Below are positions 3-61,795 of a DNA stretch of 64,000 nt, piece after piece. A program made the translations under genes and the position numbers. Numbering within the stretch: position 1 is the first letter of the stretch; every line of letters begins with the position of its first letter. The stretch is taken from IMG/VR virus record IMGVR_UViG_3300044635_002180, positions 32,001-96,000 of that record; one strand, given 5' to 3'. The notes beneath the pieces are model-generated. The model saw only the letters and a list, made by a program, of their open reading frames with translations. It was not told where the DNA came from and did no database searches. The DNA is from a virus.

Positions 3-335
3 TTGTTGAATGCAACAAACTCTTTTTCACAACTCAATGAATTTGTTGCAGCTGCACACAAATTACGACACACACCAGGCATTTTTAATTTGACGCAGCC
101 CGGTTATTTGACCACCAAGCAGGTGATTGAAATGCTAATCAAACACAATCTGACAACCAGCAAGCTATATTTTAAAAACATTGAGGATTTTGAAAAAACA
201 GTGGCAACACCACGCAGCAATTGTGTACTTGATAGCTCCCTTGCTATTCGCACCGGCATCAATCTTACACCCATTGAAGATGCAATGCAACTGGCCATTG
301 ATGAATACGCTTTTAATTTAAAACAACATGCATAA
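3..335 (+). CDS. C-terminal part of an NDP-4-keto-6-deoxyglucose 3,5-epimerase/4-reductase (RmlD-like, NRS/ER type), truncated by window edge
   Basis: NSFSQLNEF...GIFNLTQPG...TPRSNCVLDS resembles the C-terminus of NRS/ER-type enzymes; lies directly upstream of rmlB/rmlA. Confidence 0.7.
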   Translation: MLNATNSFSQLNEFVAAAHKLRHTPGIFNLTQPGYLTTKQVIEMLIKHNLTTSKLYFKNIEDFEKTVATPRSNCVLDSSLAIRTGINLTPIEDAMQLAIDEYAFNLKQHA

Positions 336-1326
336 AAATATCTTAATAACAGGTGGTTGTGGTTTCATTGGATCACATTTTGTTCAGCTTGCCAAACAAA
401 ACTTTGAAACAGTTGTGGTGCTTGATGCTCTCACGTATGCAGCCATCAATGCACCTGCAGCTTTATCAGTCAAGACTCTTTGCTGTGTAGATAATATTCA
501 TTACTACAAGGGCAGCATCAACAATTCACAATTGGTAGAAATGTTGCTACAGCAACACAACATTGACGTGGTTGTAAATTTTGCTGCTGAATCACATGTT
601 GATAACAGCATCAGCAATTGCATGCCCTTCATTGAAACCAATGTAACAGGAGTTGCTGCATTGTTGGATGCATGTTCTAGAACATGGAGCAATGAGTTCT
701 CCCACAAGCGCTTCATTCAAGTATCAACAGATGAGGTGTTTGGTTCTCTAACAGGAGAACAAGAGAGCTTCAAAGAGACAACACCATATGCACCACGCAA
801 TCCTTATTCAGCTAGCAAAGCTGCAGGAGATCATTTGGTTGATGCATATGTGAATACTCATGGCTTTCCTGCCATCATCACTCATTGCTGCAACAATTAC
901 GGACCAGGTCAGCATAATGAAAAATTGCTGCCCAAAGTCATTGGCAACATTTATCTTCACAATCAAATTCCAGTTTATGGTGATGGTGAAAATTACCGTG
1001 AATGGATTCATGCTGCAGATCATTGCACTGGAATTTTAGCAGCCATCAAGAATGGTAAAATTGGTGAGCATTATAATCTTGGCACTGGCTATGAAATTTC
1101 CAACATTGAACTCATCAAGAAAATTTGCCATTTAATGAATGCCAATCACCGCGCATTGATCAAGTTTGTGCCAGATAGGCCAGGACATGACAAACGCTAC
1201 AGCATTGACAGCACCAAAGCAAGAACACAGCTTGCATGGCAGCCCAAAATAAACTTTGAAGATGGTTTGCAGCAAAGCATAAAATGGTTTTGCAAAAGCA
1301 AAATTTGCTCAGCAACAGAATTTTAA
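328..1326 (+). CDS. rfbB: dTDP-glucose 4,6-dehydratase
   Basis: TGGCGFIG, FAAESHVD, STDEVFG, YSASKA, NNYGP, RPGHDKRY motifs. Confidence 0.95.
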   Translation: MHKNILITGGCGFIGSHFVQLAKQNFETVVVLDALTYAAINAPAALSVKTLCCVDNIHYYKGSINNSQLVEMLLQQHNIDVVVNFAAESHVDNSISNCMPFIETNVTGVAALLDACSRTWSNEFSHKRFIQVSTDEVFGSLTGEQESFKETTPYAPRNPYSASKAAGDHLVDAYVNTHGFPAIITHCCNNYGPGQHNEKLLPKVIGNIYLHNQIPVYGDGENYREWIHAADHCTGILAAIKNGKIGEHYNLGTGYEISNIELIKKICHLMNANHRALIKFVPDRPGHDKRYSIDSTKARTQLAWQPKINFEDGLQQSIKWFCKSKICSATEF

Positions 1327-1328
1327 TT

Positions 1329-2111
1329 ATGATGCATCAAAATAAAAAATCGCATCGTGGCATTATTTTAGCTGGTGGAAATGGCACACGTTTGCACCCC
1401 CTGACACTTGCAGTGAGCAAGCAATTGTTGCCAGTTTACAAATATCCAATGATTTGTTATCCCATCAACACATTGATGCAGATGAACATCAAAGACATCA
1501 TGATCATCACCATGCCAGATCAGCAGCATTTGTTTGAAAAAGCATTGCGCAAAATCATTGATGACAATGACTTGAACATAACATTTGCTGTTCAACATGA
1601 GCCCAAAGGGTTGCCAGAAGCATTCATCATTGCTGAACAATGGCTTGATGGTTGTGATGCAGTATTGATTCTTGGAGACAACATCATCATTAATCATGAT
1701 GCAATTGAAATGGACTGCAACAGCATCTATACTTTTCCAGTGCAACATCCAGAACGGTATGGTGTTGTCACATGCAAGCCCAATGGTTGCATTGATGAGT
1801 TGATTGAAAAGCCGCAGCAGTTTATAAGCAAAGATGCAGTCATAGGAATGTATGCTTTGAGCAATGCTGCATGTCAAAGAGCCAAGCTTTTAAAACCTTC
1901 CAAAAGAAATGAATTGGAAATAGTTGATTTGATAAGAGACATGGATACATTTGACTCACAGGTGAAAGTGAAAAAGCTCAATGGATTTTGGTTTGATGCT
2001 GGCAATCATGATGATTTGCTGGATTGTGCAAATCTTGTGAGAACCATTGAACAACGCAGCAGCAAGCCTGTGATACAACTCAAATATGAAAAGATGCACA
2101 ATAACATATGA
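1329..2111 (+). CDS. rfbA: glucose-1-phosphate thymidylyltransferase
   Basis: GIILAGGNGTRLHPLT, SKQLLPVY, ILGDN, IEKP, KPSKRNELEI, WFDAG; start moved from 1284 to the ATG just after the rfbB stop. Confidence 0.93.
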   Translation: MMHQNKKSHRGIILAGGNGTRLHPLTLAVSKQLLPVYKYPMICYPINTLMQMNIKDIMIITMPDQQHLFEKALRKIIDDNDLNITFAVQHEPKGLPEAFIIAEQWLDGCDAVLILGDNIIINHDAIEMDCNSIYTFPVQHPERYGVVTCKPNGCIDELIEKPQQFISKDAVIGMYALSNAACQRAKLLKPSKRNELEIVDLIRDMDTFDSQVKVKKLNGFWFDAGNHDDLLDCANLVRTIEQRSSKPVIQLKYEKMHNNI

Positions 2112-43935: not shown

Positions 43936-44585
43936 TGAGCACAACAACAGTTTATTTAACAGGCAACGCATTATCTGCAGATTATGTTAATTTTTATGGC
44001 CCCTTTTTAATCAAGGGCACTTCAACTGTAGGTTTTAATTTGTATGGCATCAATGAAGAAACAAATCCAGTTGCAAACATTCATGGTTATTTTGGGGATG
44101 GTGCAGAGTATAAAGATGTTTTAAACTTGCACATTGATTTATCTTCTTTGGATACCATTGAGATTGCTGAATCTGGAAAAATTCGCTGCATCGCACAAAA
44201 TTTTGAGCACACTTATGAAAAAAATCAAACCACTTTTGTGGATTATTTGACTGCTTCATTTGTTCTCACATACACCTCTCAGCGACGCGGCATACACAAT
44301 GTTAAACTAATTCATGTAAAAAATTCATATTATGATGACGTTAAACAGATACATTTAAATGCAACGCAAATGCTGCCTATTTCTTCAAATGATTTGGTAG
44401 CTGTTGCTTCAGATGATTCTGGCAATGTGTTTCACATGTACATCAGTAGAACACAGCTGGAATCAGCTGATGTTACACTAACTACTCCTACAACAGGCGT
44501 ATTCTTAGGCCCACGCACCATAAAAAACTGCTATATACTTCAAGCACAGCAAGGTGGTGTTATTGTTCCTTTACTGTCTGCATAA
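43935..44585 (+). CDS. structural protein with PKD-like motif
   Basis: YFGDG...FEHTY; coupled to the upstream gene. Confidence 0.5.
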   Translation: MSTTTVYLTGNALSADYVNFYGPFLIKGTSTVGFNLYGINEETNPVANIHGYFGDGAEYKDVLNLHIDLSSLDTIEIAESGKIRCIAQNFEHTYEKNQTTFVDYLTASFVLTYTSQRRGIHNVKLIHVKNSYYDDVKQIHLNATQMLPISSNDLVAVASDDSGNVFHMYISRTQLESADVTLTTPTTGVFLGPRTIKNCYILQAQQGGVIVPLLSA

Positions 44586-44594
44586 ATAACACAT

Positions 44595-45935: not shown

Positions 45936-45994
45936 CCTGCAACTCTTGTTGCAGTTGATGATGCAGTTGCATTGAATGATGCTTAAATATAAGC

Positions 45995-49273: not shown

Positions 49274-49281
49274 ATAGTTGA

Positions 49282-51171
49282 GTGATAAATTATTCAAAAA
49301 CAAAGGTAGGTTTTACTAATGGTGCAGATTTTGTACTTTCAGCAAATAGCTATGTTGGTTATTATCATGTAATTGATGGTAGTGCTTATCAAGGTGCTAA
49401 TATTTTAGATATTAGTCTGCCGCTTGAGGCTAAAAATAATATTTCAGCAGATGCTTTGCTATCTGAATTTTTGTATGATAGAATAATTGATGATGCTGTC
49501 TCTCTGCCATATTCATTGAATGATATACTTGTAGCACCCAATGAAACCTGCAATGCTCGTGTGTTCAATGATAGGCTTGAAAAACTCTACACCAATGCAA
49601 TTTACCTGTATAACAATTTATTTTTAGCTAGCAACAATATACCCAATGGGTATGACAGAGCTGCAGGAGTTTCCAAAGCAACTAATACTTTGTCATGGTC
49701 TCAAGAAAGTGCACAATCTGGTGCTTCTTTTGCTCCATTTGCATCAGCAGGATATGCAGTTGTAGATGATGCAATACAATTTACTACAGTAAAAACATAC
49801 AACAACGATTATGTATTTTTTGGTATAACACCTACGCACTTTGTTGCTCTTTCATCAAACAAAGAGTTGACAGCATTTGATGTTGCAACAACCAATGAGT
49901 ATGTTGCAGAAAATAATGATTTGAAATTTACACAGCTTGCAAGCTTTAGTGTGGCAGGCAAATATGCGTTTTTATGTGATGCTGCGCAAAATACAATTTA
50001 TAAATATGATGTTTCTGGTTATTTTTCAGGAGATGCAACCATCTACAATCGTCGCATTTTAATAGACAGCATTGGTGGATTTGGCAGTGCATTATCAAAG
50101 ACCAAATTTGATTCACCAAACATTGTATTTGCTGTTGAACCTTTGAATCGCTTGTATGTAAATGATAGCAACAACCGATGCATAAAAATATTTGATACTA
50201 GCTTTTCATATGTTGCAACAAAAACTTTTGCAGCAGGTTCTAATACTATTGTAAAGTGCTTTGGATATAATCCTATTTTGCAACGCATTTACTATGTAAC
50301 AAAAAATGCTGTTACGCAGGAACATACTATACAAATATGTGATGCTGATTTAAATGCAGAAGAGACTTATGACTTGCCAGATGCATTGGAGCAAAATGAA
50401 GACTATGCTGGTTTTGTTTTTTCAAAGAATGATTCTAATATTTTTTACTTGTTCACCAATCAAAATGTGTTTAAGAAATTTGTTAATAAGCCAAATAAAA
50501 CCATAGGCAAATGGCTGCTATACAAAAGTGGAATAACAGCAACACACATTTGGAATCTAGAGAATTCATTGTATAATTTGGCACAATGGAATTGGAATGA
50601 AGGTGAAATATCAATAAGAACAGCTCTCAGCATTAACGGCATGTCTTCTTTCTTTATTTCTGACATTGATGAAAGAGAAGAAATATTTTTGTTTGTAGGC
50701 GCCAACGACAAATCCTTTAACAGAATATTGCATTATACAGAAACAAATATTTTCAATACTGCATTGGGTGCTACTGTAATTAATGCTTACAACATCTCTC
50801 AAGCCACAGTGGATGATAATGAATTTGTAAATGCCATGGTCATAAACAAAGAGTTGTATAAAATTGCTTATAACATTTTAAACATCATAAGATTCATCAC
50901 AAGCAGATATGCAGCAGAATATGATTTCTTAAATAATCTTGTATTCAAGAATACCATCGCTTTAAGTAATGAGGAATTTGCTTTGATAAATTTTGTTAAT
51001 TTAAAAAATCTATATGTGCATGAAAATGAAATCATGAATAGCATTGGACCAATCAATAGATGCTTCAAAGAGTTGTGCAATTTGCAAAATAACGCATTGC
51101 AAATTGTACGCACACGCATCAATAACTTCGTTTCAACGCTTTCTGGCACACAAACAATTATTTTAAACTAA
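49282..51171 (+). CDS. structural protein with NHL-like beta-propeller
   Basis: KFDSP...LYVNDSNNRCIKIFD NHL-like repeat; TAAATA-N5-GTG. Confidence 0.6.
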   Translation: MINYSKTKVGFTNGADFVLSANSYVGYYHVIDGSAYQGANILDISLPLEAKNNISADALLSEFLYDRIIDDAVSLPYSLNDILVAPNETCNARVFNDRLEKLYTNAIYLYNNLFLASNNIPNGYDRAAGVSKATNTLSWSQESAQSGASFAPFASAGYAVVDDAIQFTTVKTYNNDYVFFGITPTHFVALSSNKELTAFDVATTNEYVAENNDLKFTQLASFSVAGKYAFLCDAAQNTIYKYDVSGYFSGDATIYNRRILIDSIGGFGSALSKTKFDSPNIVFAVEPLNRLYVNDSNNRCIKIFDTSFSYVATKTFAAGSNTIVKCFGYNPILQRIYYVTKNAVTQEHTIQICDADLNAEETYDLPDALEQNEDYAGFVFSKNDSNIFYLFTNQNVFKKFVNKPNKTIGKWLLYKSGITATHIWNLENSLYNLAQWNWNEGEISIRTALSINGMSSFFISDIDEREEIFLFVGANDKSFNRILHYTETNIFNTALGATVINAYNISQATVDDNEFVNAMVINKELYKIAYNILNIIRFITSRYAAEYDFLNNLVFKNTIALSNEEFALINFVNLKNLYVHENEIMNSIGPINRCFKELCNLQNNALQIVRTRINNFVSTLSGTQTIILN

Positions 51172-51192
51172 CTCATGTTATAAATAACTACA

Positions 51193-52764
51193 ATGGCATC
51201 ACAAACACTAACAGACCAAACAGTAGCTTCAACATATCAAGGCGTTTTGCATGCCAATGGAGAAGCATTGCCAGCCGTTTCTACAGCAATAATTTATGAT
51301 GGCAGCGGACAAATTTCTTCTCTGAAATTGGGTGTTTCAGGTCAAGGAGCTGCTGTTGCAGGGGGGTTTTCATGCTCACAACAGCTGACAGCAGGTGAAA
51401 TAAGATATACCACAGTAGATTCTGCATCTGGTGCCAACTTTCCGCTGGTTTCTGATGGAAACAAAACAGCAGTGTTTGGTCAAATGACATCAAATGCTCT
51501 TCTTGATCTCACACCAAGCCCTGCAGGAGAATATGGCAATATTCAATATTTAGCTGTTAACAGCAAGGGCTTAGTGACCAACGTTGTAGGTGGTCCTGCA
51601 ACATCAAATGCTTGGGTTACTTTTGATGGCAAAGATGTATCTTTTACATATCTCATTAACAACTTGACAGTAACATGCACATCCATTGGGCATTCTTTGG
51701 TAACAGGCAATATAATAACTGTAAAAAATGCAACAAACACTAGCCTCAATGGATCTTTTGTTGTTCAGTCTTCTGATATTCTCAATAATACGTTTACATT
51801 TGCTAATCCAACAGGAGCAACTACAGGTTCAGGTTCAGGCATTGTAGATGTAACAATTAAATCCAGCTACAATGTAAGCTCTGTTGTTCGTGAATCTGTA
51901 GGCATATACAAAGTAAATTTTGCTACAGAATTTAAGAACAAAGATTATGTTACGGTGTGTGGTGCAAAATATCCCAACGTTGCACGTACTGATTTGGAAA
52001 ATTTGCAAGCAAATTCTGTGCTTGCACAAAAAGGCTATGTCAAAATAAGAAGCTTTTATATAACCAGTGGCGATCAAGTAATAGAATATGATGATGGTTA
52101 CATCAGTGTTTATTGTTTAGGTAGCACAGTTGAGGATAATTCTCCAACTCCAGTATCTTTTGATAGTTTTATAAACACAAATGCTCATTGGTCTGAAGCA
52201 GCAGCACCTGCTGGCTCCACTATAACAGCAAGCATAACACCCGCTGTTATGTCAACCAACAAATGGAACATGGTCATCATTGGTGCATATGAGTCATTTA
52301 GTTGTGTCTCTGGCTGTCAAGGCATTGAGAGCAGAGTTGTTGTAAACGGTGCAACAACCTCGCAAATGAACCAGGGGTCATGCGGCAACTCTGGTGCTGA
52401 AACAGCTATATATCATGTATTCATTTACACTAACAATGAATTAAAATATGCAAATTTTCATTGGACCAATTCTGGATGGAGCCCATATGTAACCAATGCA
52501 TGGGATAGGCCCAATAAAAATGCTGCTTTGGCTGCTTTCAATGGACTATATTCACAAGGTGCAATTGTTAATAATCAAATTGTCAATGTACAACAGAGTT
52601 CACCAGGAACATGGGTTACAAACTTTTTAAACTCATATGGTAGTGAATTTACAATAATACAATCAGCTGATGTAACATTTTACACTGTTGCTGGAAGAGC
52701 AAATCGATGCAATGGTGGATATGTTGTGTGGCAAAATTATATTAGATACTTTACCCCACAATAA
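51193..52764 (+). CDS. tail fibre-like protein
   Basis: VNSKGLVT motif; AWVTFDG...SYNVSSV...G.YKVNF domain shared with the 44595 C-terminus. Confidence 0.65.
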   Translation: MASQTLTDQTVASTYQGVLHANGEALPAVSTAIIYDGSGQISSLKLGVSGQGAAVAGGFSCSQQLTAGEIRYTTVDSASGANFPLVSDGNKTAVFGQMTSNALLDLTPSPAGEYGNIQYLAVNSKGLVTNVVGGPATSNAWVTFDGKDVSFTYLINNLTVTCTSIGHSLVTGNIITVKNATNTSLNGSFVVQSSDILNNTFTFANPTGATTGSGSGIVDVTIKSSYNVSSVVRESVGIYKVNFATEFKNKDYVTVCGAKYPNVARTDLENLQANSVLAQKGYVKIRSFYITSGDQVIEYDDGYISVYCLGSTVEDNSPTPVSFDSFINTNAHWSEAAAPAGSTITASITPAVMSTNKWNMVIIGAYESFSCVSGCQGIESRVVVNGATTSQMNQGSCGNSGAETAIYHVFIYTNNELKYANFHWTNSGWSPYVTNAWDRPNKNAALAAFNGLYSQGAIVNNQIVNVQQSSPGTWVTNFLNSYGSEFTIIQSADVTFYTVAGRANRCNGGYVVWQNYIRYFTPQ

Positions 52765-52769
52765 TTTTT

Positions 52770-54095
52770 ATGCCTGATATTAAAATAGTTAAATTAAAAC
52801 TACGCCGTGGTACTGAAACTCAACGCAAATTGGTTGTTTTGGATCAAGGTGAACTTGGTTATGTGACTGATACCAAAAGAACATTTGTTGGGGATGGCAG
52901 CACTTTGGGAGGAACTATAATTGGAACAAAAATCTTTACACCCATTGCAAGCAATAAAACAGGTTTAAATGCCTATACCGGTGATGTAGTTGTTGAAAAT
53001 AATTTGATGTATCAATTGACTGGCTCAAATGCTGGGCAACTTTCTGCATGGAAATTGATTAGCCCCATTGTTGACAATTCTACCATCAATTTTGATCCAT
53101 CAAATGTCTTGCGCATCAAACCTGATGGTGTGGGCATTGCTCAACTTGGCAATATTACTTACAATCTAGGCGGTATAGTAATGAACAACACTCAGGGACT
53201 GAGTGCAAATGTTGATAAAACCACCATCATTGTTAATACATCTAATCAGCTTGCCATCAGCACTGTTTACGCCAGCAGCATCATTGGGCAAATCAACAAC
53301 ACTCAAATTAATACTGCCACTCTTGCTGGCAGTGCATTGCAGAGTACAGGAAATAAACTAGATGTTCAAGTGGATAATTCCACAATTGTAATATCTTCCA
53401 ATCAATTGACAGTAGGAACGCTTGATGCTAGCAAGATCTCAACCGGAACCTTTGGTGCAACTCGCATTGATGCTTCTGTTGTAGGTCAGGGACTGCAGGG
53501 TGGTGCTGGTGTTGCAATTTCAACCAGCCTTGATCTCAACTCATTAGCATATAACAACAGCAACCAAATTGTACTCAACACACTTTATAAAGCTGCGCGC
53601 ATTCCGCTCAGCTCAAATGACGTTAATTTTGGCGGCTTTACAACTAGCTATGCAACGGCTTCTGCATTAGCAACTATCAACAGTGCTTTGAGCACAGTAA
53701 GCACCATGATAATTATTGGTACAGGCACAGGCTATACATCTACTCCATCCATCTCTGTTCAGCCACCATCAGCTGCACCAGGCTTCTTTCCTGCATCAGC
53801 AAGTGCTGTAGTTTATAATGGGATGCTTTCTGCAATTACTATAACTAATGCAGGTTCGGGATATAATTTTGTACCGCAGATAATAATTGATCCACCACCT
53901 CATAGAGAGACATTGTATCAGGTGGTTACTGCAACTACTACAGGTGGTGTTATACCTGGGTCTCAAACATATCAATTATCATCTGCAGGCTTTGTCATGA
54001 TGCATTTTGGCAGCGAGTTGGGAATTTTAGCCGTTCCTGTGTTTAAAGTGCCTACAGCATTGCAAAATTTAACAGTTGCTACTGTAACAGTGTAA
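52770..54095 (+). CDS. tail fibre protein with Mtd_N/hyaluronidase-type N-terminal domain
   Basis: LRRGT...LDQGELGYVTDTKRTFVGDG; VDNSTI repeats; ITNAGSGY. Confidence 0.75.
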   Translation: MPDIKIVKLKLRRGTETQRKLVVLDQGELGYVTDTKRTFVGDGSTLGGTIIGTKIFTPIASNKTGLNAYTGDVVVENNLMYQLTGSNAGQLSAWKLISPIVDNSTINFDPSNVLRIKPDGVGIAQLGNITYNLGGIVMNNTQGLSANVDKTTIIVNTSNQLAISTVYASSIIGQINNTQINTATLAGSALQSTGNKLDVQVDNSTIVISSNQLTVGTLDASKISTGTFGATRIDASVVGQGLQGGAGVAISTSLDLNSLAYNNSNQIVLNTLYKAARIPLSSNDVNFGGFTTSYATASALATINSALSTVSTMIIIGTGTGYTSTPSISVQPPSAAPGFFPASASAVVYNGMLSAITITNAGSGYNFVPQIIIDPPPHRETLYQVVTATTTGGVIPGSQTYQLSSAGFVMMHFGSELGILAVPVFKVPTALQNLTVATVTV

Positions 54096-54122
54096 ATTTA
54101 GCTGCATGCATTAAATACAGGC

Positions 54123-56708
54123 ATGAGTAGCGGTGCTAATAAAATTGAAATTACACAATCAACCCTTTTAAAACTTCTTGTTCGTCGTGGCTCCAATGAA
54201 GAGCGCAAAAACATAGTTTTATCAGAAGGTGAATTGGGGTATGCAGTTGATACAAAAAAACTTTTCGTTGGCGATGGTGCAACTGTGGGTGGTGTGCCTG
54301 TTACAACACAGGTTTATTATGGTGCTACTCCACCAATTGCTTATAATGCAGCAACCACGGGTGATTTTGCTTATGATTCTACAGAAGGTGCTTTGTATGT
54401 ATTAACAGGTGATGATCCAACCATCATCGGCGATTGGGGAATTGTTGCTAATGATGTGCGTGTTGATGATGCAACAATGCAGTTGATAACATACAATGGT
54501 GTTCCAAATACTCTTGCTGTTAAGACTGTTAGCGCAGCACAGCTTGACCCAAATTTGCCTGGAACTGGTTTGGAATACAGTGGTGTGCCCATCAGAACAA
54601 TTCAAACCACTGCAGATCAAGCTTTTGATAGCATCAGTTTGCGCTCTGCTGCAGCATTGCAAATACCTACCACCTTACAATTCGGTACAGCTGGTGGAGC
54701 AACTCAATATTCAATGCCACCCTTTGATGGTCCCAATGGATACTCATTAGTCACAAATGGTAATGGTGTTCTTGAATGGAAGCCTGGCAATTCTGTTACG
54801 GAGTATTTGGTTCTGACTGGCAACCAAATACCAGTTGGCACAATATTACAGTTTGGATCTGGTGGCAACTTCCAACGAGCTGTTTCTAGTTATGATGTGC
54901 CTTATGGATATTTTTTATGTGATGGTAGAACGCTTTCAGGAACTCAGTATCAAGCTCTCTGTGAAGCAATTGGAACGTTTTATGGAACTGCATCTGCTGG
55001 AACATTCAAAATTCCATCTTTGACTGCGTCTAATTACGTTTATCTCATCAAATACCTCGAGGATCAATACATTGAGCCTGTTACAATTTCTCTTGAAAAC
55101 AGCCTCACTGGCTTAAACGTTACTGCATCAACATCGGTTTCATCTTTTGAAATTCCACAAAGTTCTGCTGTTGAAATTCGCTTGGGTGTTCCTGACTATG
55201 TTAGCAAGACTTATGTTGATTCTATTTTCTCCTCTTTGGTGGTTCAAAATACTGTTTACAAGCTAGCAAAAATGTCTGAACCTAATTGCAGCAATGGTAT
55301 AAATGCTCTGGGCTTTACAGCATTCATAGACAAGCGTACCAAGGCATTGAGATTCAGCGGCTTGGATAGAAGTGGTACTGCCGGTATTAGCAACATACAA
55401 GGTAACTGCACTCCCATCCTCATTGATTCACCCATAGAATATGGTGATGCATATGAGTGTGCAGAAGAGATATATGGTGCAGAAGCCACTACATTTGTAG
55501 TCACCAACAGTGGCAATGTGTATGCAGCTGGTGATAATAATTATGGTATAAATGGCACAAACAATTCCGCCACAGGTGGTATAAATGCTGCAAATTCTAG
55601 ATATACCAAACTTACATTCCCTGCGGGTGCAGGCAAGGTTACAAAAATAAGCATTGGTGGTGCTTGGTGGTATAGTGAAACATATTCTGTACGACATGCT
55701 TTTGCATTGACAGAATCTGGCAGCGCATTTGCATGGGGTTATAATGGATATGGACAAACAGGCATTAATTCTTCGACAAATCAAGTAACATCACCAACTT
55801 CAACTCACACAGGTTCTCTTTCTGACAAATTAGTAAGCAAGATATATTCATTCTGTGGCAATACCTATGGTTATTCTTTTGCCATTGATACATCTGGTGG
55901 TGTGCATGCTTGTGGTTATGGTGGTAGTTATAATTTCGGCAACAACTCAACAGCAAATATAGATACAGGGTGGAGAAGCTTAAATAGAACTGCAGATGAA
56001 ATTTATGCTGCAGTTGGTTCTCCCTACCACACCACATACTTGCTCTCTGGTGGCAGGTTGTGGGGTTGTGGATATAACTATGGATACCAAATTGGCAGAG
56101 CAACCGGTGAAACATACATTACCACTTTTGTGCCAGTTAGCTCCAGCAGCACAAGCTTTACACAGCTTACTGGTGTATCTGCTCTCTCCATAAGTGATAA
56201 TTATGGTGGATCCTGCACAATAATTGCTTTGATGCAAGATCAGACCATAAGAACATGGGGATATAATAACAGTGGGCAGTGCGGAACGGGTACCACATCT
56301 GAGTATATAACAGCTCCTGCTTCTAACATATCTTCCGGTGGTGGATTTGCAAATGCAGGCATAGTTAAAATAAAAGCTCATGGATATTATCCGTATAGTT
56401 CAGTTTTTGTTATGAATTCTGCTGGGCAAATTTGGAGCACTGGATACAATGGCTATGGTCAATTGGGCAATGCCAACACAGGATCAAATTCTAGCTTCTT
56501 TACCAGAGTAAAACAGCCGCGTGGAGTAACTTACAAAGATTTCAACATCTATGCTGAATATAATGTAATTGAATCCTACACTGTACTTGCAGTAGATGCA
56601 AATGATAATTTATATGCTTGGGGTGGAAACTTTTACTCACAGTGTGGGTTTGCCAACTACCCAAATTTGAATTATTACGGAACTCCACTAAAAATTAACT
56701 TCAATTAA
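54123..56708 (+). CDS. tail fibre with Mtd_N, tail-collar and RCC1-like beta-propeller
   Basis: RRG...GELGYAVDTKKLFVGDG; PVGTI...YFLCDG; multiple WGYNxxGQ RCC1 repeats. Confidence 0.82.
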   Translation: MSSGANKIEITQSTLLKLLVRRGSNEERKNIVLSEGELGYAVDTKKLFVGDGATVGGVPVTTQVYYGATPPIAYNAATTGDFAYDSTEGALYVLTGDDPTIIGDWGIVANDVRVDDATMQLITYNGVPNTLAVKTVSAAQLDPNLPGTGLEYSGVPIRTIQTTADQAFDSISLRSAAALQIPTTLQFGTAGGATQYSMPPFDGPNGYSLVTNGNGVLEWKPGNSVTEYLVLTGNQIPVGTILQFGSGGNFQRAVSSYDVPYGYFLCDGRTLSGTQYQALCEAIGTFYGTASAGTFKIPSLTASNYVYLIKYLEDQYIEPVTISLENSLTGLNVTASTSVSSFEIPQSSAVEIRLGVPDYVSKTYVDSIFSSLVVQNTVYKLAKMSEPNCSNGINALGFTAFIDKRTKALRFSGLDRSGTAGISNIQGNCTPILIDSPIEYGDAYECAEEIYGAEATTFVVTNSGNVYAAGDNNYGINGTNNSATGGINAANSRYTKLTFPAGAGKVTKISIGGAWWYSETYSVRHAFALTESGSAFAWGYNGYGQTGINSSTNQVTSPTSTHTGSLSDKLVSKIYSFCGNTYGYSFAIDTSGGVHACGYGGSYNFGNNSTANIDTGWRSLNRTADEIYAAVGSPYHTTYLLSGGRLWGCGYNYGYQIGRATGETYITTFVPVSSSSTSFTQLTGVSALSISDNYGGSCTIIALMQDQTIRTWGYNNSGQCGTGTTSEYITAPASNISSGGGFANAGIVKIKAHGYYPYSSVFVMNSAGQIWSTGYNGYGQLGNANTGSNSSFFTRVKQPRGVTYKDFNIYAEYNVIESYTVLAVDANDNLYAWGGNFYSQCGFANYPNLNYYGTPLKINFN

Positions 56709-58936
56709 TGTCTAGCACAGTCATATCAACATCAGCAGCTGCAGCAAGCATTGCATTTGCGCAAGCATACAATGCATATCAGGACATCACATGGTCTTTG
56801 CAATACACTCTCTGTGGTGATGCAAATGCACAAGGTGGTTTTTGTGCTTTTTTGTATGGTGCTCCTGATTTGACGCCAGGTGGCATTGGCAAGTCTTTGG
56901 GGTTTGCGCCATCTCAAAATTATACTGGATTCACCAATGTATCCGGCATTAGTGGTGCAATTGTTGGCATAGGATTGGATAGCCTTGGCTTGTTTGCTGT
57001 TTCTGGAAATGGCATGTCAACTGGCATTGATGCTTCTCAAGCTATTCGCAATGCTATAACCATCAGAACCGGAACTAATTTTACCTTTTTAACTACATTT
57101 GCAGCCACTGCTTTTGATTCCACATTTACAGTTGTTCAATCATCTGCAGCATTGCAGCAGTTGCGATTCAGACTTACAGAAGCAAGCAATGCTATAGAAA
57201 TAGCACAATGGAATGGTGATGCATATGATGTTTGGTGCAATGTTCCTGTTTCGTTGAACTTGCCTGCATCTGCTTTTTGCAGAGCAGGCTTTTCATTTGC
57301 TGCACCTCTCTGTGGAAATGTTGCTGCAGCTAAGTTTGGCATTGCAAATGCACATTTTGAGGGATCATTGCAGCAACCAACTCAGCAAATTGTAGAACCA
57401 CCACTGCAATGCAAATTGCCTGTTGTATCAAATATCAATGTTGCAACACCAAATTCAATAACAATACACCCCAACATTGAAACACTGGGTGGAGCTTATG
57501 CACCCATTGAACCACCAACACCATTGCCTGATCCATGTGATGCTCAACCTACTGCTACAGTCAAATGCGGTGAAAATATTTCTTATGTTGGTGAACGCGG
57601 CACCTTTTATTATTACATTGATGCTGGTGAAGCAACAGGCGAATTTACCATTGCATATGATGCTTATACCATCCCAGATAGATTTACACTTACATGGAAC
57701 AATCAAGTAGCTACATCATGCTTTGTTGGTGATTCAAGCTTTAATGCTGAATTATCTGCACTTGGCTATGGACCTGTTGCTTCAACAGGCAGAGGGTTGC
57801 TTAAAATTAACAAAACTTTGAGCAATCCACGAATTGTGGAATTGCGCGTTGATGGTCCGTTGGAGGGAACTGCATGGGAAGTTCAGGTATTGTGCATACC
57901 AACACCACAGCCACAATTGTTGCTTTATAGGGGCACAAATACATCTCCAGCTAACCTCATTAATAATTTTGACAGCATCAACTTTGGTACATTTAATTTG
58001 GGACAATCTGCTCAACAGATTTTCACCATTAAAAACAATGGTGATGCAAATTTAAATTCTTTTAGCTTGGTGCAGCTGCTCACTGCATCATTTTCGCAAT
58101 ACAAAGTTGGCATTCCAATTACTTCAGCTGCAGTTGCACCAAATGGTTCAACTACTTTTGCCATTAATTTTACTCCAACATTAACAGGAAACAACAACAG
58201 TCGATTTGATCTGTATAGTAATGATGCAAAAAGTCCCATTACTTTTAATCTTAGTGCCATTGTTCTTAGTGATGCTATTCCATTGTGTGCATGCAATTCA
58301 GAAATTGATTATAGTGGAGATCAAGGTGTATTTACATACAACATAGATTATGGTTCTGATGTTGGTGACATCAACATCGAATACAATTCATTTAGCATCC
58401 CAGATAGATTTACACTCAACTGGAATGGCATAAGTGCAACTACAGGTTTTGTTGGAGATGCTACATACAATAGTCAGTTGACTGCCTTGGGTTATCCGCC
58501 TGTTTCTTCAACAACAAGCAGTGGCATTTTATCTGTTGCTAAAACATCAGCAGAACCTCAGTATGCTACATTAACAGTTGAAGGACCGCTTGTGGGAACA
58601 GCATGGTATATTGAATCAAGTTGTATAGCAGCTCCTACAACAACAACTACCACAACACCACCTCCAACAACACCACCTCCAACAACGCCACCACCTACCA
58701 CAACAACTACCACAACAACTACAACAACAACTACAACAACAACTACAACAACAACTACAACAACAACTACCAGCACAACTACCAGCACAACTACCAGCAC
58801 AACTACCAGCACAACTACCAGCACAACTACCAGCACAACTACCAGCACAACAACCAGCACAACAACCAGCACAACTACCAGCACAACTACCAGCACAACT
58901 ACCAGCACAACAACAAGTACAACAACACTACCGTAA
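56708..58936 (+). CDS. L-type-lectin-like / Ig-like protein with mucin-like Thr/Ser/Pro C-terminal tail
   Basis: GGFCAFL...GKSLGF...VGIGLDS lectin-like domain; two IPDRFTL.WN domains; FTIKNNG...FTPT Ig-like domain; ~95-aa T-rich tail. Confidence 0.7.
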   Translation: MSSTVISTSAAAASIAFAQAYNAYQDITWSLQYTLCGDANAQGGFCAFLYGAPDLTPGGIGKSLGFAPSQNYTGFTNVSGISGAIVGIGLDSLGLFAVSGNGMSTGIDASQAIRNAITIRTGTNFTFLTTFAATAFDSTFTVVQSSAALQQLRFRLTEASNAIEIAQWNGDAYDVWCNVPVSLNLPASAFCRAGFSFAAPLCGNVAAAKFGIANAHFEGSLQQPTQQIVEPPLQCKLPVVSNINVATPNSITIHPNIETLGGAYAPIEPPTPLPDPCDAQPTATVKCGENISYVGERGTFYYYIDAGEATGEFTIAYDAYTIPDRFTLTWNNQVATSCFVGDSSFNAELSALGYGPVASTGRGLLKINKTLSNPRIVELRVDGPLEGTAWEVQVLCIPTPQPQLLLYRGTNTSPANLINNFDSINFGTFNLGQSAQQIFTIKNNGDANLNSFSLVQLLTASFSQYKVGIPITSAAVAPNGSTTFAINFTPTLTGNNNSRFDLYSNDAKSPITFNLSAIVLSDAIPLCACNSEIDYSGDQGVFTYNIDYGSDVGDINIEYNSFSIPDRFTLNWNGISATTGFVGDATYNSQLTALGYPPVSSTTSSGILSVAKTSAEPQYATLTVEGPLVGTAWYIESSCIAAPTTTTTTTPPPTTPPPTTPPPTTTTTTTTTTTTTTTTTTTTTTTTTSTTTSTTTSTTTSTTTSTTTSTTTSTTTSTTTSTTTSTTTSTTTSTTTSTTTLP
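58637..58930 (+). repeat. coding tandem repeat: acaacaacaact units then ~12 x accagcacaac(t/a)
   Basis: 12-bp periodic array, near-perfect from 58769 to 58912. Confidence 0.92.
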
Positions 58937-58977
58937 TATATTGTTGAAAGTAGAAATGCTTTAGGTAAATATTTTAA

Positions 58978-59817
58978 ATGAAGAAGCTAACCATTGGAAT
59001 GTCAACTTATGATGATTATGATGGTGTATATTTTTCTATACAGTCGTTAAAGATGTATCAACTTGATTTTTTAAATAATGACTATGAAATAATAGTTTTA
59101 GATAATAATCCAAATTCACAGCATGGTAGAGAGGTTAAAAATTTCGTTCAAAACTGGGCTAAAGGTATGTATATTCCATATACAGAAAAAATAAGTACGT
59201 TTACAAAATATGAAATTTTTAAATACGCACGGGGTGAATATACATTATGTCTTGATTCACACGTGTTATTACAACCTAATGGTGTTAAAAATTTAATGGA
59301 GTATTATTCAAAAAATCCTAATACGAAAAATCTAATACAGGGACCATTATGGTATGATGATTTAAATAGTATATCCACACATTTCGATCCGGTGTGGCGT
59401 GGAACTATGTACGGAACATGGGGAACGAATAAAGATTTATATGAAAAGCAGGATCCATTTGAAATTTCTCTTATGGGAATGGGCATGTTTTCTTGCAAGA
59501 CATCCGAGTGGCCGGGTATAAATCAAAATTTTATAGGCTTTGGAGGAGAGGAAGGATATGTACATGAGAAGTTTCGTGAAGCAGGTGGCAAGTGCATTTG
59601 TCTTCCTACAGTAAAATGGAACCACAGGTTTGGTAGACCTAATGGAGTTCCATATCCTAATGTACTTGAGGATAGAATTTGGAACTACTTTGTCGGGTGG
59701 TTAGAAATATTAAAAGATCCTGGAGATCCTTTTTTTCAATCAATTTTTGATGCCTTTAAGGATGCAGTACCGCATAAAGTCATAAGTAATTTATTTGAAA
59801 AAGCTAAACAACTATGA
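58978..59817 (+). CDS. GT-A fold (GT2-like) glycosyltransferase
   Basis: LTIGMSTY, EIIVLDN, ARGEYTLCLDSH, GFGGEE, WNH; TAAATA-N6-ATG. Confidence 0.85.
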   Translation: MKKLTIGMSTYDDYDGVYFSIQSLKMYQLDFLNNDYEIIVLDNNPNSQHGREVKNFVQNWAKGMYIPYTEKISTFTKYEIFKYARGEYTLCLDSHVLLQPNGVKNLMEYYSKNPNTKNLIQGPLWYDDLNSISTHFDPVWRGTMYGTWGTNKDLYEKQDPFEISLMGMGMFSCKTSEWPGINQNFIGFGGEEGYVHEKFREAGGKCICLPTVKWNHRFGRPNGVPYPNVLEDRIWNYFVGWLEILKDPGDPFFQSIFDAFKDAVPHKVISNLFEKAKQL

Positions 59818-60473
59818 ATGTTTTGTATATAGGTAGTGGTAATTCTGCAAAATACGTGCATCAACTAGATCATACTAAATACATAACTGTGTGTGTAAAT
59901 AACGCATGGCGGTTATTTACAGATAATAAAGTTTTTGATTATTGGTTACATTCAGGTGATTTTCCGCACGAAAATTATCCTAATAAAAAAAATTTTAAAT
60001 ATGAAATTTCGAATGAGGAATATGAAGCATCTATTAAAAATTTAGTTTATAATAAATTAAAGTTAAAAGAATCATCACCATGTCATTATGTTGGCTATAC
60101 TATTTTTTTTATAGGGTTGCATTGGATAATGCATGAAATATCACCTGCAAATATATTCTTATTAGGATTTGATCATGATTATAATCGGAATAAAACGCAA
60201 AAATGGCTTAATAACGGACAACCCAACCCTCAAAACCAATATCTAAAAGATACATCAAAAAGTATAAAAGAGTGGTCTGATAATTTTTTTTATGAATTTG
60301 AACATGATTTTTTTTACGGGCATGGTACACCTGATCCAATGAGATTGGGTGAAAATTACATAAAAGAAAAATTTTTTCAGGCTGCTAATACTGCAAGACA
60401 GTTAAATGTAAATATTTTTAATGCTTCTTTAGCAGATGGGAGTTTAAATATATTTCCGAAAATTAAAATATGA
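59814..60473 (+). CDS. sialyltransferase-like / DUF115-Maf-like protein
   Basis: YIGSGNS, ITVCVNNAW, IFLLGFDH, IFNAS pattern. Confidence 0.6.
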   Translation: MNVLYIGSGNSAKYVHQLDHTKYITVCVNNAWRLFTDNKVFDYWLHSGDFPHENYPNKKNFKYEISNEEYEASIKNLVYNKLKLKESSPCHYVGYTIFFIGLHWIMHEISPANIFLLGFDHDYNRNKTQKWLNNGQPNPQNQYLKDTSKSIKEWSDNFFYEFEHDFFYGHGTPDPMRLGENYIKEKFFQAANTARQLNVNIFNASLADGSLNIFPKIKI

Positions 60474-60673
60474 AACTAGAACAAGGCAAAATTGTAAAGT
60501 GGGAAAATTCTTCTAAACAGCAAATTGTTTGGATGGTGTGTGATGATGCTGCATCTGGTGTTGTTGTACACTCTGATCATTTGATGCGCATTGGCACTAT
60601 CACACGCAACTTGCAAGAATATAATGTTAAACCATTTGTTGGCACAGTAAACATTAGTTCAGCAGCAAATTAA
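60470..60673 (+). CDS. hypothetical protein
   Basis: 67-aa ORF with ATGA coupling. Confidence 0.55.
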   Translation: MKLEQGKIVKWENSSKQQIVWMVCDDAASGVVVHSDHLMRIGTITRNLQEYNVKPFVGTVNISSAAN

Positions 60674-60930
60674 TTGCTTTTGAAAAATAGATCTTCTTCT
60701 GTCTCTTGTTCAACGCCATTTTTCATTTCATAAACAATGTCATGTTTCATTGAATGAAAACGTTCTTCAATGTACCTTTCAATGGCAATGGGCTTCACCC
60801 AATCGAATTTTTCTGGATCAATGCCGTGTTGAATCATTTGTGCATCAGCAACTGAAATTGCTTCTACCAAGCAGCTCCAGCGTACGATTTCATCCAGAGA
60901 CATATCTTTTGTTGTTTTATTATTTTCCAT
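60670..60930 (-). CDS. hypothetical protein
   Basis: 86 aa; strong upstream promoter match. Confidence 0.7.
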   Translation of the reverse strand: MENNKTTKDMSLDEIVRWSCLVEAISVADAQMIQHGIDPEKFDWVKPIAIERYIEERFHSMKHDIVYEMKNGVEQETEEDLFFKSN

Positions 60931-60935
60931 AGTTC

Positions 60936-60964
60936 ACTATACGTGACTTTTTGAAAAACTTCAA
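60936..60964 (-). promoter_or_regulatory. sigma70-like promoter
   Basis: TTGAAG-N17-TATAGT, then 5 nt to ATG. Confidence 0.6.
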
Positions 60965-61428
60965 CCGTTATTTTCAGAAAAAACAGAATAAGCATATCCA
61001 AGAACCAAAGCTATAAAAATATTTTTGTCATCTGGAGACAACATCTTTATGCATTCTTGTGTGTTTACAATGTTTTTTGATAGCTTATCAACAATTGTGC
61101 CGTCTTTTGCTTTGCTGCACTTTTTAAAATATTCCAACAAGCAATGCACAAGCGTTTCTGTTTCACAATTCTTTCCATACAATTGTGATATTTTATACAT
61201 GTTCATCACATCATGATATTTGCCTTCTCCTTTGAAGGCAATTTTATCAATGCATGCATCAAATGCTCTTTTGATATCAGCATCTGAAACAATTGGCTTC
61301 TGCAAAGCTGCAGTTACAGAAGATGGAATCTGCGGCATTTGTTGTACAAAATCATTATTCATCAGCAGTTGTGTTTGGCAGGCTTGACATGGCTTGAACC
61401 ATTTGATTGTGTGTTGCATCAACATCAA
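60961..61428 (-). CDS. hypothetical protein (true start probably downstream, MNNDF)
   Basis: ORF in a minus-strand run. Confidence 0.6.
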   Translation of the reverse strand: MMLMQHTIKWFKPCQACQTQLLMNNDFVQQMPQIPSSVTAALQKPIVSDADIKRAFDACIDKIAFKGEGKYHDVMNMYKISQLYGKNCETETLVHCLLEYFKKCSKAKDGTIVDKLSKNIVNTQECIKMLSPDDKNIFIALVLGYAYSVFSENNG

Positions 61429-61795
61429 TGATGTCAGTCATGAGTGCTGTTTTTGCTGTCAATCCAACATTGATGTTTTTTTCACAATTGATGCATTTGT
61501 AAAAATTGGGTTGATCCAATCGAATGGGTATAATTTGCTCCACCATGTTGGTGCAAGGACACTTTAATTTGAGTGTTTGTTTTGCAGCATCTTCAATGCG
61601 CTTGGTGAGCTGCTTTTCCATTTCCAAGGATGTTTTGACTTGCAACCATTGATTCATTGCTGCACCAATGATGAACTGAACAACAAGTGCTAATGCAAAA
61701 CCAGCAAAAAAATTCATCCATTGCATCAAAATAAATCCACAAATGATGCTTATTGCCAATGCTATTATAATGGGTATCCAGGGCTTATTTTGCAT
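61355..61795 (-). CDS. two-TM membrane protein with C-terminal Cys cluster
   Basis: Two N-terminal hydrophobic helices, a coiled segment, CPC...CINC. Confidence 0.7.
   Translation of the reverse strand: MQNKPWIPIIIALAISIICGFILMQWMNFFAGFALALVVQFIIGAAMNQWLQVKTSLEMEKQLTKRIEDAAKQTLKLKCPCTNMVEQIIPIRLDQPNFYKCINCEKNINVGLTAKTALMTDIIDVDATHNQMVQAMSSLPNTTADE

Follow-up and report, generated by a model that had tools for sequence, protein, structure and literature searches.

Mucin-type O-glycosylation, in which a ppGalNAc-T acts as initiator on dense Thr tracts, is considered a trait of eukaryotes. In bacteria, Maf puts nonulosonic acids on Ser/Thr residues of a cytoplasmic structural protein, flagellin, before assembly. 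In the serine-rich-repeat adhesins of Gram-positive bacteria, Ser/Thr repeats are glycosylated stepwise in the cytoplasm by GtfA/B, Gtf3 and GalT1/dGT1; a GT-B (GT4) pair initiates, and an accessory Sec system exports the product. Among phages, other T4-like members glycosylate their own DNA against restriction. To our knowledge, some mycobacteriophages are the only phages in which glycosylation of virions by the phage's own enzymes has been demonstrated. According to PMC12619734, which cites Freeman et al. 2023 (Cell Host Microbe), mycobacteriophage glycosyltransferases (GTs) encoded beside structural genes modify the C-terminal parts of virion proteins. Giant viruses of eukaryotes (Mimivirus, chloroviruses) possess their own host-independent glycosylation machinery for particle surface proteins, often with their own sugar-nucleotide pathways (PMC9614988). 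Our literature search found no GT27-like or ppGalNAc-T-like enzyme and no Thr-rich O-glycosylation in phages.

The locus described here comes from an uncultured T4-like phage, IMG/VR record IMGVR_UViG_3300044635_002180 (116 kb, only 55% complete). The window, that is the whole stretch analysed, comprises positions 32,001-96,000 of the record (64,000 nt). Its relevant features, in window coordinates, are:

328..1326, + strand: dTDP-glucose 4,6-dehydratase, passing the equivalog cut-off
1284..2111, + strand: RmlA-like nucleotidyltransferase, below the cut-off
54123..56708, + strand: fibre-like gene with Mtd_N, phage tail Collar and RCC1-repeat domains (Pfam)
56708..58633, + strand: globular body of P0001, residues 1-641 (Pfam, PHROGs, language-model search)
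58625..60678, + strand: exchangeable cassette of tail, P0002, P0003 and 67-aa ORF (comparison with sister phage L293)
58634..58936, + strand: C-terminal tail of P0001, residues 642-742, followed by the stop codon; putative O-glycan acceptor (codon count, TRF)
58966..58971, + strand: late-type motif TAAATA, 6 nt before the P0002 ATG
58978..59817, + strand: P0002, soluble GT-A glycosyltransferase of predicted GT27 (ppGalNAc-T)-like fold, 279 aa (Pfam, AF2 model, fold searches)
59814..60473, + strand: P0003, unannotated family with a predicted GT42 (Cst-I)/Maf-like fold, 219 aa, translationally coupled to P0002 (fold search)
60470..60673, + strand: 67-aa ORF of no known family, coupled to P0003 (ATGA overlap), inside the swapped cassette

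The fibre-like gene, P0001, P0002, P0003 and the 67-aa ORF follow each other on the plus strand. The stop of the fibre-like gene overlaps the start of P0001, and this gene supplies a late, structural context for P0001. A gap of 41 nt separates P0001 from P0002, and ATGA overlaps join the P0003 start to the P0002 stop and the 67-aa ORF start to the P0003 stop. About 20 other genes in the window, mostly structural, carry TAAATA at identical spacing (TAAATA-N6-ATG). The gene order, the couplings and this common motif show that the phage GTs adjoin, and by these signs are co-expressed with, structural genes with fibre domains. Scans for sigma-70 promoters and terminators in the region did no better than chance. 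Among 50,697 cultured-phage records, neither blastn of 56000-61000 nor tblastn with P0002 and P0003 as queries gave a match; judged by gp6, at about 25% identity, T4-like cyanophages come closest among cultured phages. The arrangement parallels that of the mycobacteriophages, where phage-encoded GTs also stand beside structural genes and the acceptors are also C-terminal parts. Those acceptors, however, are the C-termini of capsid and tail-tube proteins in siphoviruses of actinobacteria (PMC12619734), whereas here a fibre-cluster accessory protein of a T4-like myovirus is proposed to serve as acceptor through its long mucin-like tail, with a GT27-like enzyme as initiator. The giant viruses resemble this phage, as interpreted here, in encoding machinery for particle surface proteins, and differ from it in their eukaryotic hosts, in their enzyme families and glycans, and in lacking a compact tail-plus-enzyme cassette (PMC9614988).

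P0001 (56708-58936, plus strand) has 742 residues. A sequence-only reading of this DNA had described a Thr/Ser/Pro tract of about 95 residues at the end of the last fibre-cluster gene. The tract is real: by codon count it has 101 residues (75 T, 13 S, 11 P, 1 A and 1 L), it contains a period-12 array at 58635-58911 (TRF), and it is the sole tract of its sort in the 116-kb record. The same reading had called the protein a lectin. The N-terminal region resembles legume-lectin clusters with a score of 0.95, but this rests on a language-model look-alike search alone and is no more than a lead, and the only domain that Pfam shows is an Ig-like HYDIN/ASH domain at residues 420-516. The body also contains two copies of a domain of about 115 aa (phrog_13374). 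The term mucin-like stalk is not supported: in this phage the tail ends freely, as a C-terminal brush without a domain at its tip. Orthologues of P0001 mostly have no tail (643-660 aa, 50-95% identical), which indicates that the tail is dispensable for the fold of the body.

The description of a GT2-like gene with a late motif right after the tail was borne out by a match of P0002 to PF00535 (Glycos_transf_2, E 2.6e-7) and by TAAATA at 58966-71. The AF2 model of P0002 (pLDDT 95) is a single globular domain with a beta-strand from residue 2. In a Foldseek search of the PDB, all of the about 46 top matches listed are ppGalNAc-Ts (E about 1e-13, TM 0.73-0.75). In the VIA all-against-representatives comparison, the model aligns with mGalNAc-T1 at Z 22.6 and 2.8 A over 257 of its 279 residues and with Toxoplasma GalNAc-T3 at Z 21.1 (250/279), while the next-best GT-A family reaches Z 17.9 at most, with fewer residues aligned. 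The GT-A matches also include 5hea (Z 15.8), the GalT1 of serine-rich-repeat adhesin glycosylation. As modelled, the fold of P0002 is closest to the polypeptide GalNAc-transferases (CAZy GT27) over its whole length, superposing on the catalytic domains of T1 (8v9q), T2 (2ffu/4d0z), T10 (2d7i) and Toxoplasma T3 (8uhv) with Z 21-22.6 over 250-257 residues.

The conserved residues agree with this resemblance. D93-S-H95 and H216 do not vary across 40 homologues, and in the HMM alignment the DxH (instead of DxD) of P0002 falls on the DSH of GalNAc-T10 (2d7i). The segment GFGGEE...W-x-H216, in which G, G, E, E, W and H are invariant, aligns with WGGE...VGH of 2d7i, its Gal/GalNAc-T motif, which would put H216 in the place of the third metal-ligand His at the end of that motif. 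At the sequence level, however, the resemblance is marginal (profile E only 1.6e-3, identity 13-17%), and GT27 was not retrieved from the PDB when the C-terminal half was used as a profile by itself. P0002 differs from the eukaryotic enzymes also in being phage-encoded and in having, within its 279 aa, neither a ricin-type lectin domain nor a type II membrane anchor (Pfam shows no further domain); with no secretory pathway to enter, its expected site of action is the bacterial cytoplasm. The presumed acceptor, a dense Thr/Ser/Pro tract, is like that of mucins.

P0003 had been described as a coupled sialyltransferase/Maf-like gene. The coupling (ATGA overlap) and the predicted fold support this description, but no sequence match to GT42 or Maf does. 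The model shares its fold with the Campylobacter sialyltransferases Cst-I and Cst-II (GT42) and with Maf, giving Z 11.2 against Cst-I (2p56) and Z 11.0 against Maf (5mu5), with 160 residues aligned in each case. Foldseek ranks Cst-II and Cst-I first, at a probability of 0.94-0.95 but with E about 0.014. The fold is also common to MptE-type pyrophosphokinases (HPPK, Z 9.5) and thiamin pyrophosphokinases (Z about 8), over 126-132 residues. No Pfam family was matched at E <= 0.1 (neither CST-I nor MAF_flag10), nor any NCBIfam family, and a profile of 28 homologues run against PDB sequences gave no GT42 or Maf chain at E <= 10, only chance rows. There is a weak match to the PHROG alpha-2,3-sialyltransferase (E 1.2e-3). 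The family comprises more than 140 proteins; its viral loci came from an alignment-based scan of IMG/VR, a single-sequence pattern having found nothing. A GT27-like gene is present in 19 of 27 viral P0003 loci, mostly adjacent. Other copies are fused to or lie beside TylF-type sugar O-methyltransferases and GDP-mannose dehydratase. The bacterial homologues, inspected for glycosylation islands, mostly stand alone, outside sugar clusters and beside unrelated genes; two contigs from bacterial MAGs (L109 and L114) that carry a P0003 homologue with the GT look like phage DNA.

The GT family occurs at more than 90 viral loci, although no P0002 homologue was found in the cultured-phage collection (50,697 records). 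The sequence-only reading had proposed looking for mucin tails and the GTs together in related genomes. Across 64 viral loci, dereplicated, that carry a P0002 homologue, genes with T/S/P tracts occupy 21 of the 229 same-strand slots just upstream of the GT (-1 to -4); of the slots elsewhere they fill 2 of 905 (Fisher p = 2e-13). This is an enrichment of about 46-fold. Since the loci share ancestry, the Fisher test credits them with too much independence. Thr-rich tracts and GT do go together in relatives: the tract proteins form 10 unrelated families, and tract and GT are adjacent in no fewer than 5-6 parts of the enzyme tree. Some 40 of the 64 loci lack a tract in the four upstream genes and have a PD-(D/E)XK nuclease gene there instead, which suggests that the GT is able to work in trans or with different acceptors. 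Of five GT-bearing records without an adjacent tract, four contain poly-Thr coding tracts (57, 87, 72, 36 and 0 pattern matches); the counts for five cultured T4-like cyanophages are 4, 0, 0, 1 and 0. In the reverse direction, 5 of 120 random viral loci with (ACN)20 (1.03 Mb), about 4%, have the GT family nearby. A fixed GT pair, as had been implied, is not what relatives show. None of the 80 closest GT loci has a P0003 homologue, and a strictly conserved P0002/P0003 pair is therefore rejected; relatives fill the second-enzyme slot with GT29, with a KpsS/polysialyltransferase-like protein, or with DUF7164 plus a sulfotransferase.

Comparison with the sister phage L293 shows that tail and enzymes are exchanged as one unit between near-identical phages. 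The two genomes are 96-97% identical on both flanks of the cassette. At the junction of the P0001 body and tail the exchange begins, and L293 carries a PT-repeat tail and an FkbM-GT29 fusion in place of the tail and enzymes found here. A metagenome scan for tail-less P0001 orthologues yielded only one usable syntenic locus (L299). It lacks both enzymes, and its slot holds an unrelated glyco-gene, GT1.

The supply of sugar donors is less clear. The sequence-only reading had named an NDP-rhamnose pathway in the window. The 4,6-dehydratase passes its cut-off and an RmlA-like gene is present; however, the latter is below its cut-off, the gene ending at 335 is only weakly RmlD-like, and RmlC is missing. 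No RmlC, NeuB or CMP-sugar synthetase was found in the 116 kb of this 55%-complete record, which leaves both the label 'rhamnose' and a phage-encoded donor of sialic type unsupported. The genes at 328-2111 are only a dTDP-6-deoxyhexose pathway. It is possible that they supply sugar donors to the cassette, but they lie 55 kb away and the tie remains unproven. Host CMP-Kdo could serve as the donor of P0003, which differs from Cst-I/Cst-II and Maf in having neither detectable sequence similarity to them nor CMP-nonulosonate genes in the 116 kb.

Since a GT27-like enzyme and an enzyme of sialyltransferase fold directly follow a Thr-rich tail, the phage probably glycosylates the tail itself. Cytoplasmic O-glycosylation of the P0001 tail by the phage's own enzymes is the explanation that we favour, with some but not strong assurance, as no chemistry has been measured. 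The segment would then be a self-contained, late-expressed cassette for protein O-glycosylation. P0001 would be made together with the fibre genes and would expose its 101-residue tail at a free C-terminus. In the host cytoplasm, P0002 may transfer the first sugar, probably HexNAc or hexose, to Thr/Ser hydroxyls of the tail from a UDP-sugar held in the DxH...H metal site. P0003 may then extend this with a second sugar taken from a CMP-sugar, possibly an ulosonic or nonulosonic acid. The predicted product is a densely packed, mucin-like brush borne by a lectin/Ig-domain protein that probably sits on the particle. Such a system would share with the serine-rich-repeat adhesins its dedicated, adjacent, soluble GTs for long Ser/Thr repeats, unlike them relying on a GT27-like initiator within a phage late operon.

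The same observations might be read differently. The enzymes might act late on a host envelope glycan (LPS, capsule or a teichoic-acid-like polymer) or another non-protein acceptor, and be neighbours of the tail only through hypervariable islands at fibre ends. The best sequence-level PDB match of the P0002 profile, TarP (E 1.7e-8, N-terminal half only), a phage-encoded wall-teichoic-acid GlcNAc transferase, fits this possibility, as do a weak GtrB-like O-antigen conversion match in PHROGs, the variable slot with its unrelated glyco-genes (GT1 in L299) and the absence of an adjacent tract from most GT loci. However, over the whole domain the predicted fold is clearly nearest to polypeptide transferases, tracts of 10 unrelated families are enriched on the same strand just upstream, tail and enzymes are swapped together from the body/tail junction, and the enzymes are soluble, without a membrane segment, with a late structural-gene motif. 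We consider a host glycan an unlikely target. Glycosylation of phage DNA (hypermodified bases) to evade restriction seems scarcely credible, although a PD-(D/E)XK nuclease gene adjoins the GT in most relatives and DNA-decorating phage GTs are a known precedent (as cited in PMC12619734): the motif before the GT is of the late type common to structural genes, the fold is nearest to polypeptide transferases and not to the known DNA glucosyltransferases, and there is a strong linkage to genes for Thr-rich proteins.

It might also be that P0002 glycosylates a Thr-rich protein while P0003 is no glycosyltransferase, acting instead as a precursor maker or activator of MptE/thiamin-pyrophosphokinase fold, or in some other role. 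The two kinase families do appear in the same fold search, Pfam, NCBIfam and PDB sequences offer no match, the bacterial homologues stand alone, and a His putatively equivalent to the catalytic His of Cst-II is not invariant. Yet the two best fold matches are glycosyltransferases, aligned over more residues than the kinases; Foldseek puts Cst-II and Cst-I on top; most viral copies occur with a GT27-like gene, some are fused to or beside TylF sugar O-methyltransferases, and true GT29 sialyltransferase domains occupy the equivalent position in relatives. We would not expect this alternative to hold, but cannot dismiss it. A tail that is merely an unmodified disordered spacer or an expansion-prone repeat, in a coincidental neighbourhood, is very unlikely in our judgement. 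It would agree with the tail-less orthologues and with a simple 3/12-nt, slippage-prone repeat, but neither with the enrichment across 10 unrelated tract families nor with the sister phage, where tail type and enzyme set have changed together.

For glycosylation of a mucin-like tail by the phage, then, the support consists of co-occurrence, predicted structures (P0002 fits a polypeptide O-glycosyltransferase and P0003 the GT42/Maf fold) and the cassette swap, all of it computational. Each computational check put forward in the sequence-only reading turned out in its favour. The gene order, coupling, late motif, folds, conserved motifs, recurrent linkage and swap are established. The acceptor, sugars, donors, virion location, glycosylation itself and its role in shielding, adhesion or spacing are inferred, with no biochemical or proteomic evidence. 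A broader proposal can be put forward only tentatively, and we regard it as doubtful: that uncultured aquatic T4-like and jumbo phages widely build their own sialomucin-like coat from an exchangeable cassette, in which a GT27-like initiator puts HexNAc on poly-Thr and interchangeable enzymes (the GT42/Maf-fold family, GT29, KpsS-like proteins, sulfotransferases, O-methyltransferases) add acidic or modified caps. If such a coat exists, near-identical phages would differ in their surface glycan, which would constitute a diversity system for adhesion, for shielding from defence or grazing, or for host range, and the GT27 fold would not be a eukaryotic invention. If only the reading favoured for this locus is right, a compact phage cassette would already extend mucin-type chemistry to bacterial viruses, combining a tail that serves as acceptor with a GT27-like soluble initiator and a sialyltransferase-fold family that is new. 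Two large unannotated families (more than 90 viral GT loci and more than 140 P0003-family proteins) would gain a function, and their small soluble enzymes would be available for bacterial production of mucin-like glycoproteins. It would also add a surface-glycan layer to the dealings of aquatic phages with hosts, particles and grazers.

The sequence-only reading described a protein with a Thr/Ser/Pro-rich tail, followed by a late glycosyltransferase gene and a second, coupled enzyme gene. This arrangement is confirmed by the tail composition, the gene order, the late motif and the ATGA overlaps:

56708-58936, + strand: P0001, 742-aa tailed protein closing the fibre block; its start codon overlaps the stop of the RCC1 fibre gene
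58978-59817, + strand: P0002, 279-aa GT-A glycosyltransferase; its ATG begins 41 nt past the P0001 stop
59814-60473, + strand: P0003, 219-aa protein; ATGA overlap with P0002
60470-60673, + strand: 67-aa ORF; ATGA overlap with P0003

Beyond the 67-aa ORF, transcription is convergent with − strand genes. TAAATA lies six bases ahead of the P0002 ATG, and the identical motif and spacing are found before some 20 further genes in the window, structural ones for the most part (starts preceded by TAAATA are, for example, 16194, 29313, 40966, 44595, 51193, 58978 and 62209). In most structural genes of the window TAAATA (often TATAAATA) stands 5-6 nt ahead of the start codon. This spacing leaves no space for a Shine-Dalgarno sequence, and therefore the late mRNAs are apparently leaderless.

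The C-terminal 101 residues of P0001 comprise 75 Thr, 13 Ser, 11 Pro, 1 Ala and 1 Leu, encoded by a 3/12-nt repeat, and no comparable tract was found in other ORFs of the 116-kb record. The body of the protein contains an Ig-like HYDIN domain, a duplicated domain of about 115 aa and an N-terminal part which groups with legume-type lectins in a language-model look-alike search, a lead rather than a test.

The source record is 55% complete according to CheckV (the window being bases 32001-96000), and the phage is T4-like. The window contains a gp6-type baseplate wedge gene and a long run of fibre-like genes with Collar, Mtd_N and RCC1 domains (40966-58936, + strand). The closest cultured relatives are cyanomyoviruses, with merely about 25% identity in gp6. 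One fibre-like protein (54123-56708) joins an Mtd N-terminal domain, a phage tail Collar domain and an RCC1 beta-propeller, and its gene is kept upstream of the P0001 orthologues in two other phage loci, L293 and L299. Elsewhere, a 786-aa protein (6842-9202) carries seven DUF285 repeats (the 'Mycoplasma' repeat family, E 1.9e-62), a type unusual for a phage structural region; its C-terminus weakly matches a tail-fibre PHROG.

Comparison with L293 shows that tail chemistry and enzyme set are exchanged jointly, in a single ~2-kb cassette. This phage is 96% identical to the window over 48773-~58620 and 97% over 60679-61686, and identity is lost exactly at the junction between the P0001 body and tail. 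Its tail is a PT-repeat of about 110 residues, and a single 618-aa protein (L293:10238-12091) replaces P0002, P0003 and the 67-aa ORF. The N-terminal domain of this fusion has no assigned family and contains a DxD-like motif; its other two domains are an FkbM methyltransferase and a GT29 sialyltransferase, the latter from a family otherwise found mainly in eukaryotes. A different tail and a different enzyme between near-identical flanks thus indicate that the two change together. The other P0001 orthologues (50-95% identical) are tail-less, at 643-660 aa. L299, the sole syntenic tail-less locus fetched, is without P0002 and P0003 and carries a GT1-family gene on the opposite strand.

The structures of both enzymes were predicted, as proposed earlier. 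In P0002, a Pfam Glycos_transf_2 match is confined to the N-terminal half (E 2.6e-7). More than 90 relatives (38-77% identical) are present in IMG/VR, and no homologue was found in the cultured-phage collection. The AF2 model, built from an alignment of 40 homologues, has a pLDDT of 95. In Foldseek against PDB, all of the roughly 46 top matches listed are polypeptide GalNAc-transferases (ppGalNAc-Ts; E ~1e-13, TM 0.73-0.75). A structure search made without Foldseek over 48,161 representative chains placed mouse GalNAc-T1 first (Z 22.6, 2.8 Å, 257 of the 279 residues) and Toxoplasma GalNAc-T3 second (Z 21.1); the remaining GT-A families reach at most Z 17.9, with fewer aligned residues. D93, H95 and H216 are invariant across the family. 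Profile alignment with GalNAc-T10 places D-x-H onto DSH and the invariant GFGGEE…W-x-H onto WGGE…VGH, but with an E-value of 1.6e-3 this sequence match is only marginal, and the profile of the C-terminal half alone did not retrieve GT27, the CAZy family of these enzymes. Therefore we regard P0002 as ppGalNAc-T-like and do not claim GT27 membership; there is no biochemical evidence for its activity. It has neither a lectin domain nor a membrane anchor.

No Pfam or NCBIfam family was found for P0003, which belongs to a family of over 140 proteins, all without annotation, whose motifs are strongly conserved. Its model (pLDDT 89) is nearest to the Cst-I sialyltransferase (Z 11.2) and the Maf catalytic domain (Z 11.0), each over 160 aligned residues; Foldseek agrees weakly, and sequence profiles found no solved relative.

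The suggested co-occurrence of tails with this enzyme pair holds for the tails and P0002 homologues, but the pair itself is not fixed. We fetched 80 viral loci with a P0002 homologue and 27 with a P0003 homologue; dereplication at 90% identity left 64 of the former. Genes with a tract (a Thr/Ser/Pro run of at least 20 residues) occupy 21 of 229 same-strand slots at -1 to -4 upstream, versus 2 of 905 elsewhere (odds ratio 46, p = 2e-13). This p-value overstates independence, because the 64 loci are related. With tracts masked, the 21 proteins (84 to 2058 aa) fall into 10 unrelated clusters, and tract adjacency appears at no fewer than 5-6 separate positions on the maximum-likelihood enzyme tree. 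P0003 is present in 0/80 of the closest GT loci; in the nearest relatives the second-enzyme slot holds a GT29 sialyltransferase, a KpsS/polysialyltransferase-like protein, or DUF7164 plus a sulfotransferase. Conversely, a GT27-like gene is found in 19 of the 27 P0003 loci, mostly adjacent, often with a tract gene immediately upstream and with a TylF-type O-methyltransferase intervening. In P0003 loci without the GT, P0003 is fused to a TylF-type methyltransferase or adjoins a GDP-mannose dehydratase.

The richest cassette seen is in L093 (984-7160 and 7174-11556), where the gene for a 2058-aa protein containing 152 tract residues precedes, in this order, a GT27-like gene, the gene of a P0003 homologue, one for a 189-aa GT29-like protein and one for a 769-aa protein in which PIG-L deacetylase and CTP-dependent riboflavin-kinase-like domains are combined. 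A GT27-like gene also adjoins a P0003 homologue in two short contigs that are probably phage DNA binned into bacterial MAGs: L109 (2131 bp, 'Rickettsiales'; 63% and 58% identical, respectively) and L114 (Verrucomicrobia). In enterobacterial chromosomes, some VgrG proteins (T6SS spikes) have long C-terminal tails, about 100-190 residues of (S/E)PTPTPTE-type Pro/Thr repeats:

L116:2739-5462, L112:2774-5494 and L115:2988-5483: VgrG with a Pro/Thr tail, in Enterobacteriaceae RIT714 and two Scandinavium genomes

The genes downstream of each VgrG are an unknown gene, ImpE/TagJ and TssE, and past these three stands a P0003 homologue. These loci may be an independent instance of the P0003 family standing next to a phage-tail-like spike whose tail is Thr-rich; other enterobacterial P0003 homologues have no tailed-VgrG neighbour.

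Cytoplasmic O-glycosylation of the P0001 tail by the cassette enzymes is the best-supported reading, without biochemical or proteomic evidence. P0001 would be produced late, along with the fibres; the Thr/Ser tail would receive its first O-linked sugars in the cytoplasm, from the soluble, GT27-like P0002, and P0003 would cap or extend the glycan. The sugars have not been determined. Second enzymes that resemble sialyltransferases or KpsS recur in the cassettes, which suggests a ulosonic or nonulosonic acid cap. NeuB and CMP-sugar synthetase are absent from the 116 kb of the record, and therefore we infer host CMP-Kdo as the simplest candidate donor. The NDP-rhamnose pathway proposed earlier is only partly supported: the dTDP-sugar genes at the window start are real (an RmlB equivalog passes the cut-off; the others are RmlA-like and weakly RmlD-like), but no RmlC accompanies them and they lie 55 kb from the cassette. 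Neither the rhamnose label nor a link to the cassette is established.

The linkage was also examined from the side of the tracts: among 120 arbitrary viral loci with at least 20 consecutive Thr codons (1.03 Mb), the GT family is nearby in 5 and P0003 in none. The majority of Thr tracts, with numerous giant-virus examples, do not use this enzyme. Conversely, some 40 of the 64 GT loci lack a tract in the four genes upstream and have a PD-(D/E)XK nuclease gene there instead. Whole records of five such phages contain 57, 87, 72, 36 and 0 matches to an (ACN)12 pattern, against near-zero counts for the reversed pattern, and five cultured T4-like cyanophages lacking the enzyme contain 4, 0, 0, 1 and 0.

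Less likely alternatives are that the tail is an unmodified spacer, or that the enzymes modify a host envelope glycan, or DNA. Finally, P0003 could be a non-transferase enzyme; its lower-ranked fold matches are an MptE-type pyrophosphokinase (Z 9.5) and thiamin pyrophosphokinases (Z ~8).

Literature searches turned up no GT27-like enzyme and no Thr-rich O-glycosylation described for phages. In the literature searched, phage virion glycosylation appeared only for mycobacteriophages, as cited in PMC12619734; glycosylation of virus particles is also described for giant viruses (PMC9614988). O-glycosylation of the P0001 tail, still lacking biochemical or proteomic proof, would fall within this known virus-encoded glycosylation of particle proteins. 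What is new is the P0003 family as a frequent GT27-like partner, the swap of tail and enzymes between near-identical phages, and the tail-less orthologues. The outcome for the phage would be a lectin/Ig-domain protein whose free C-terminus bears a mucin-like brush.
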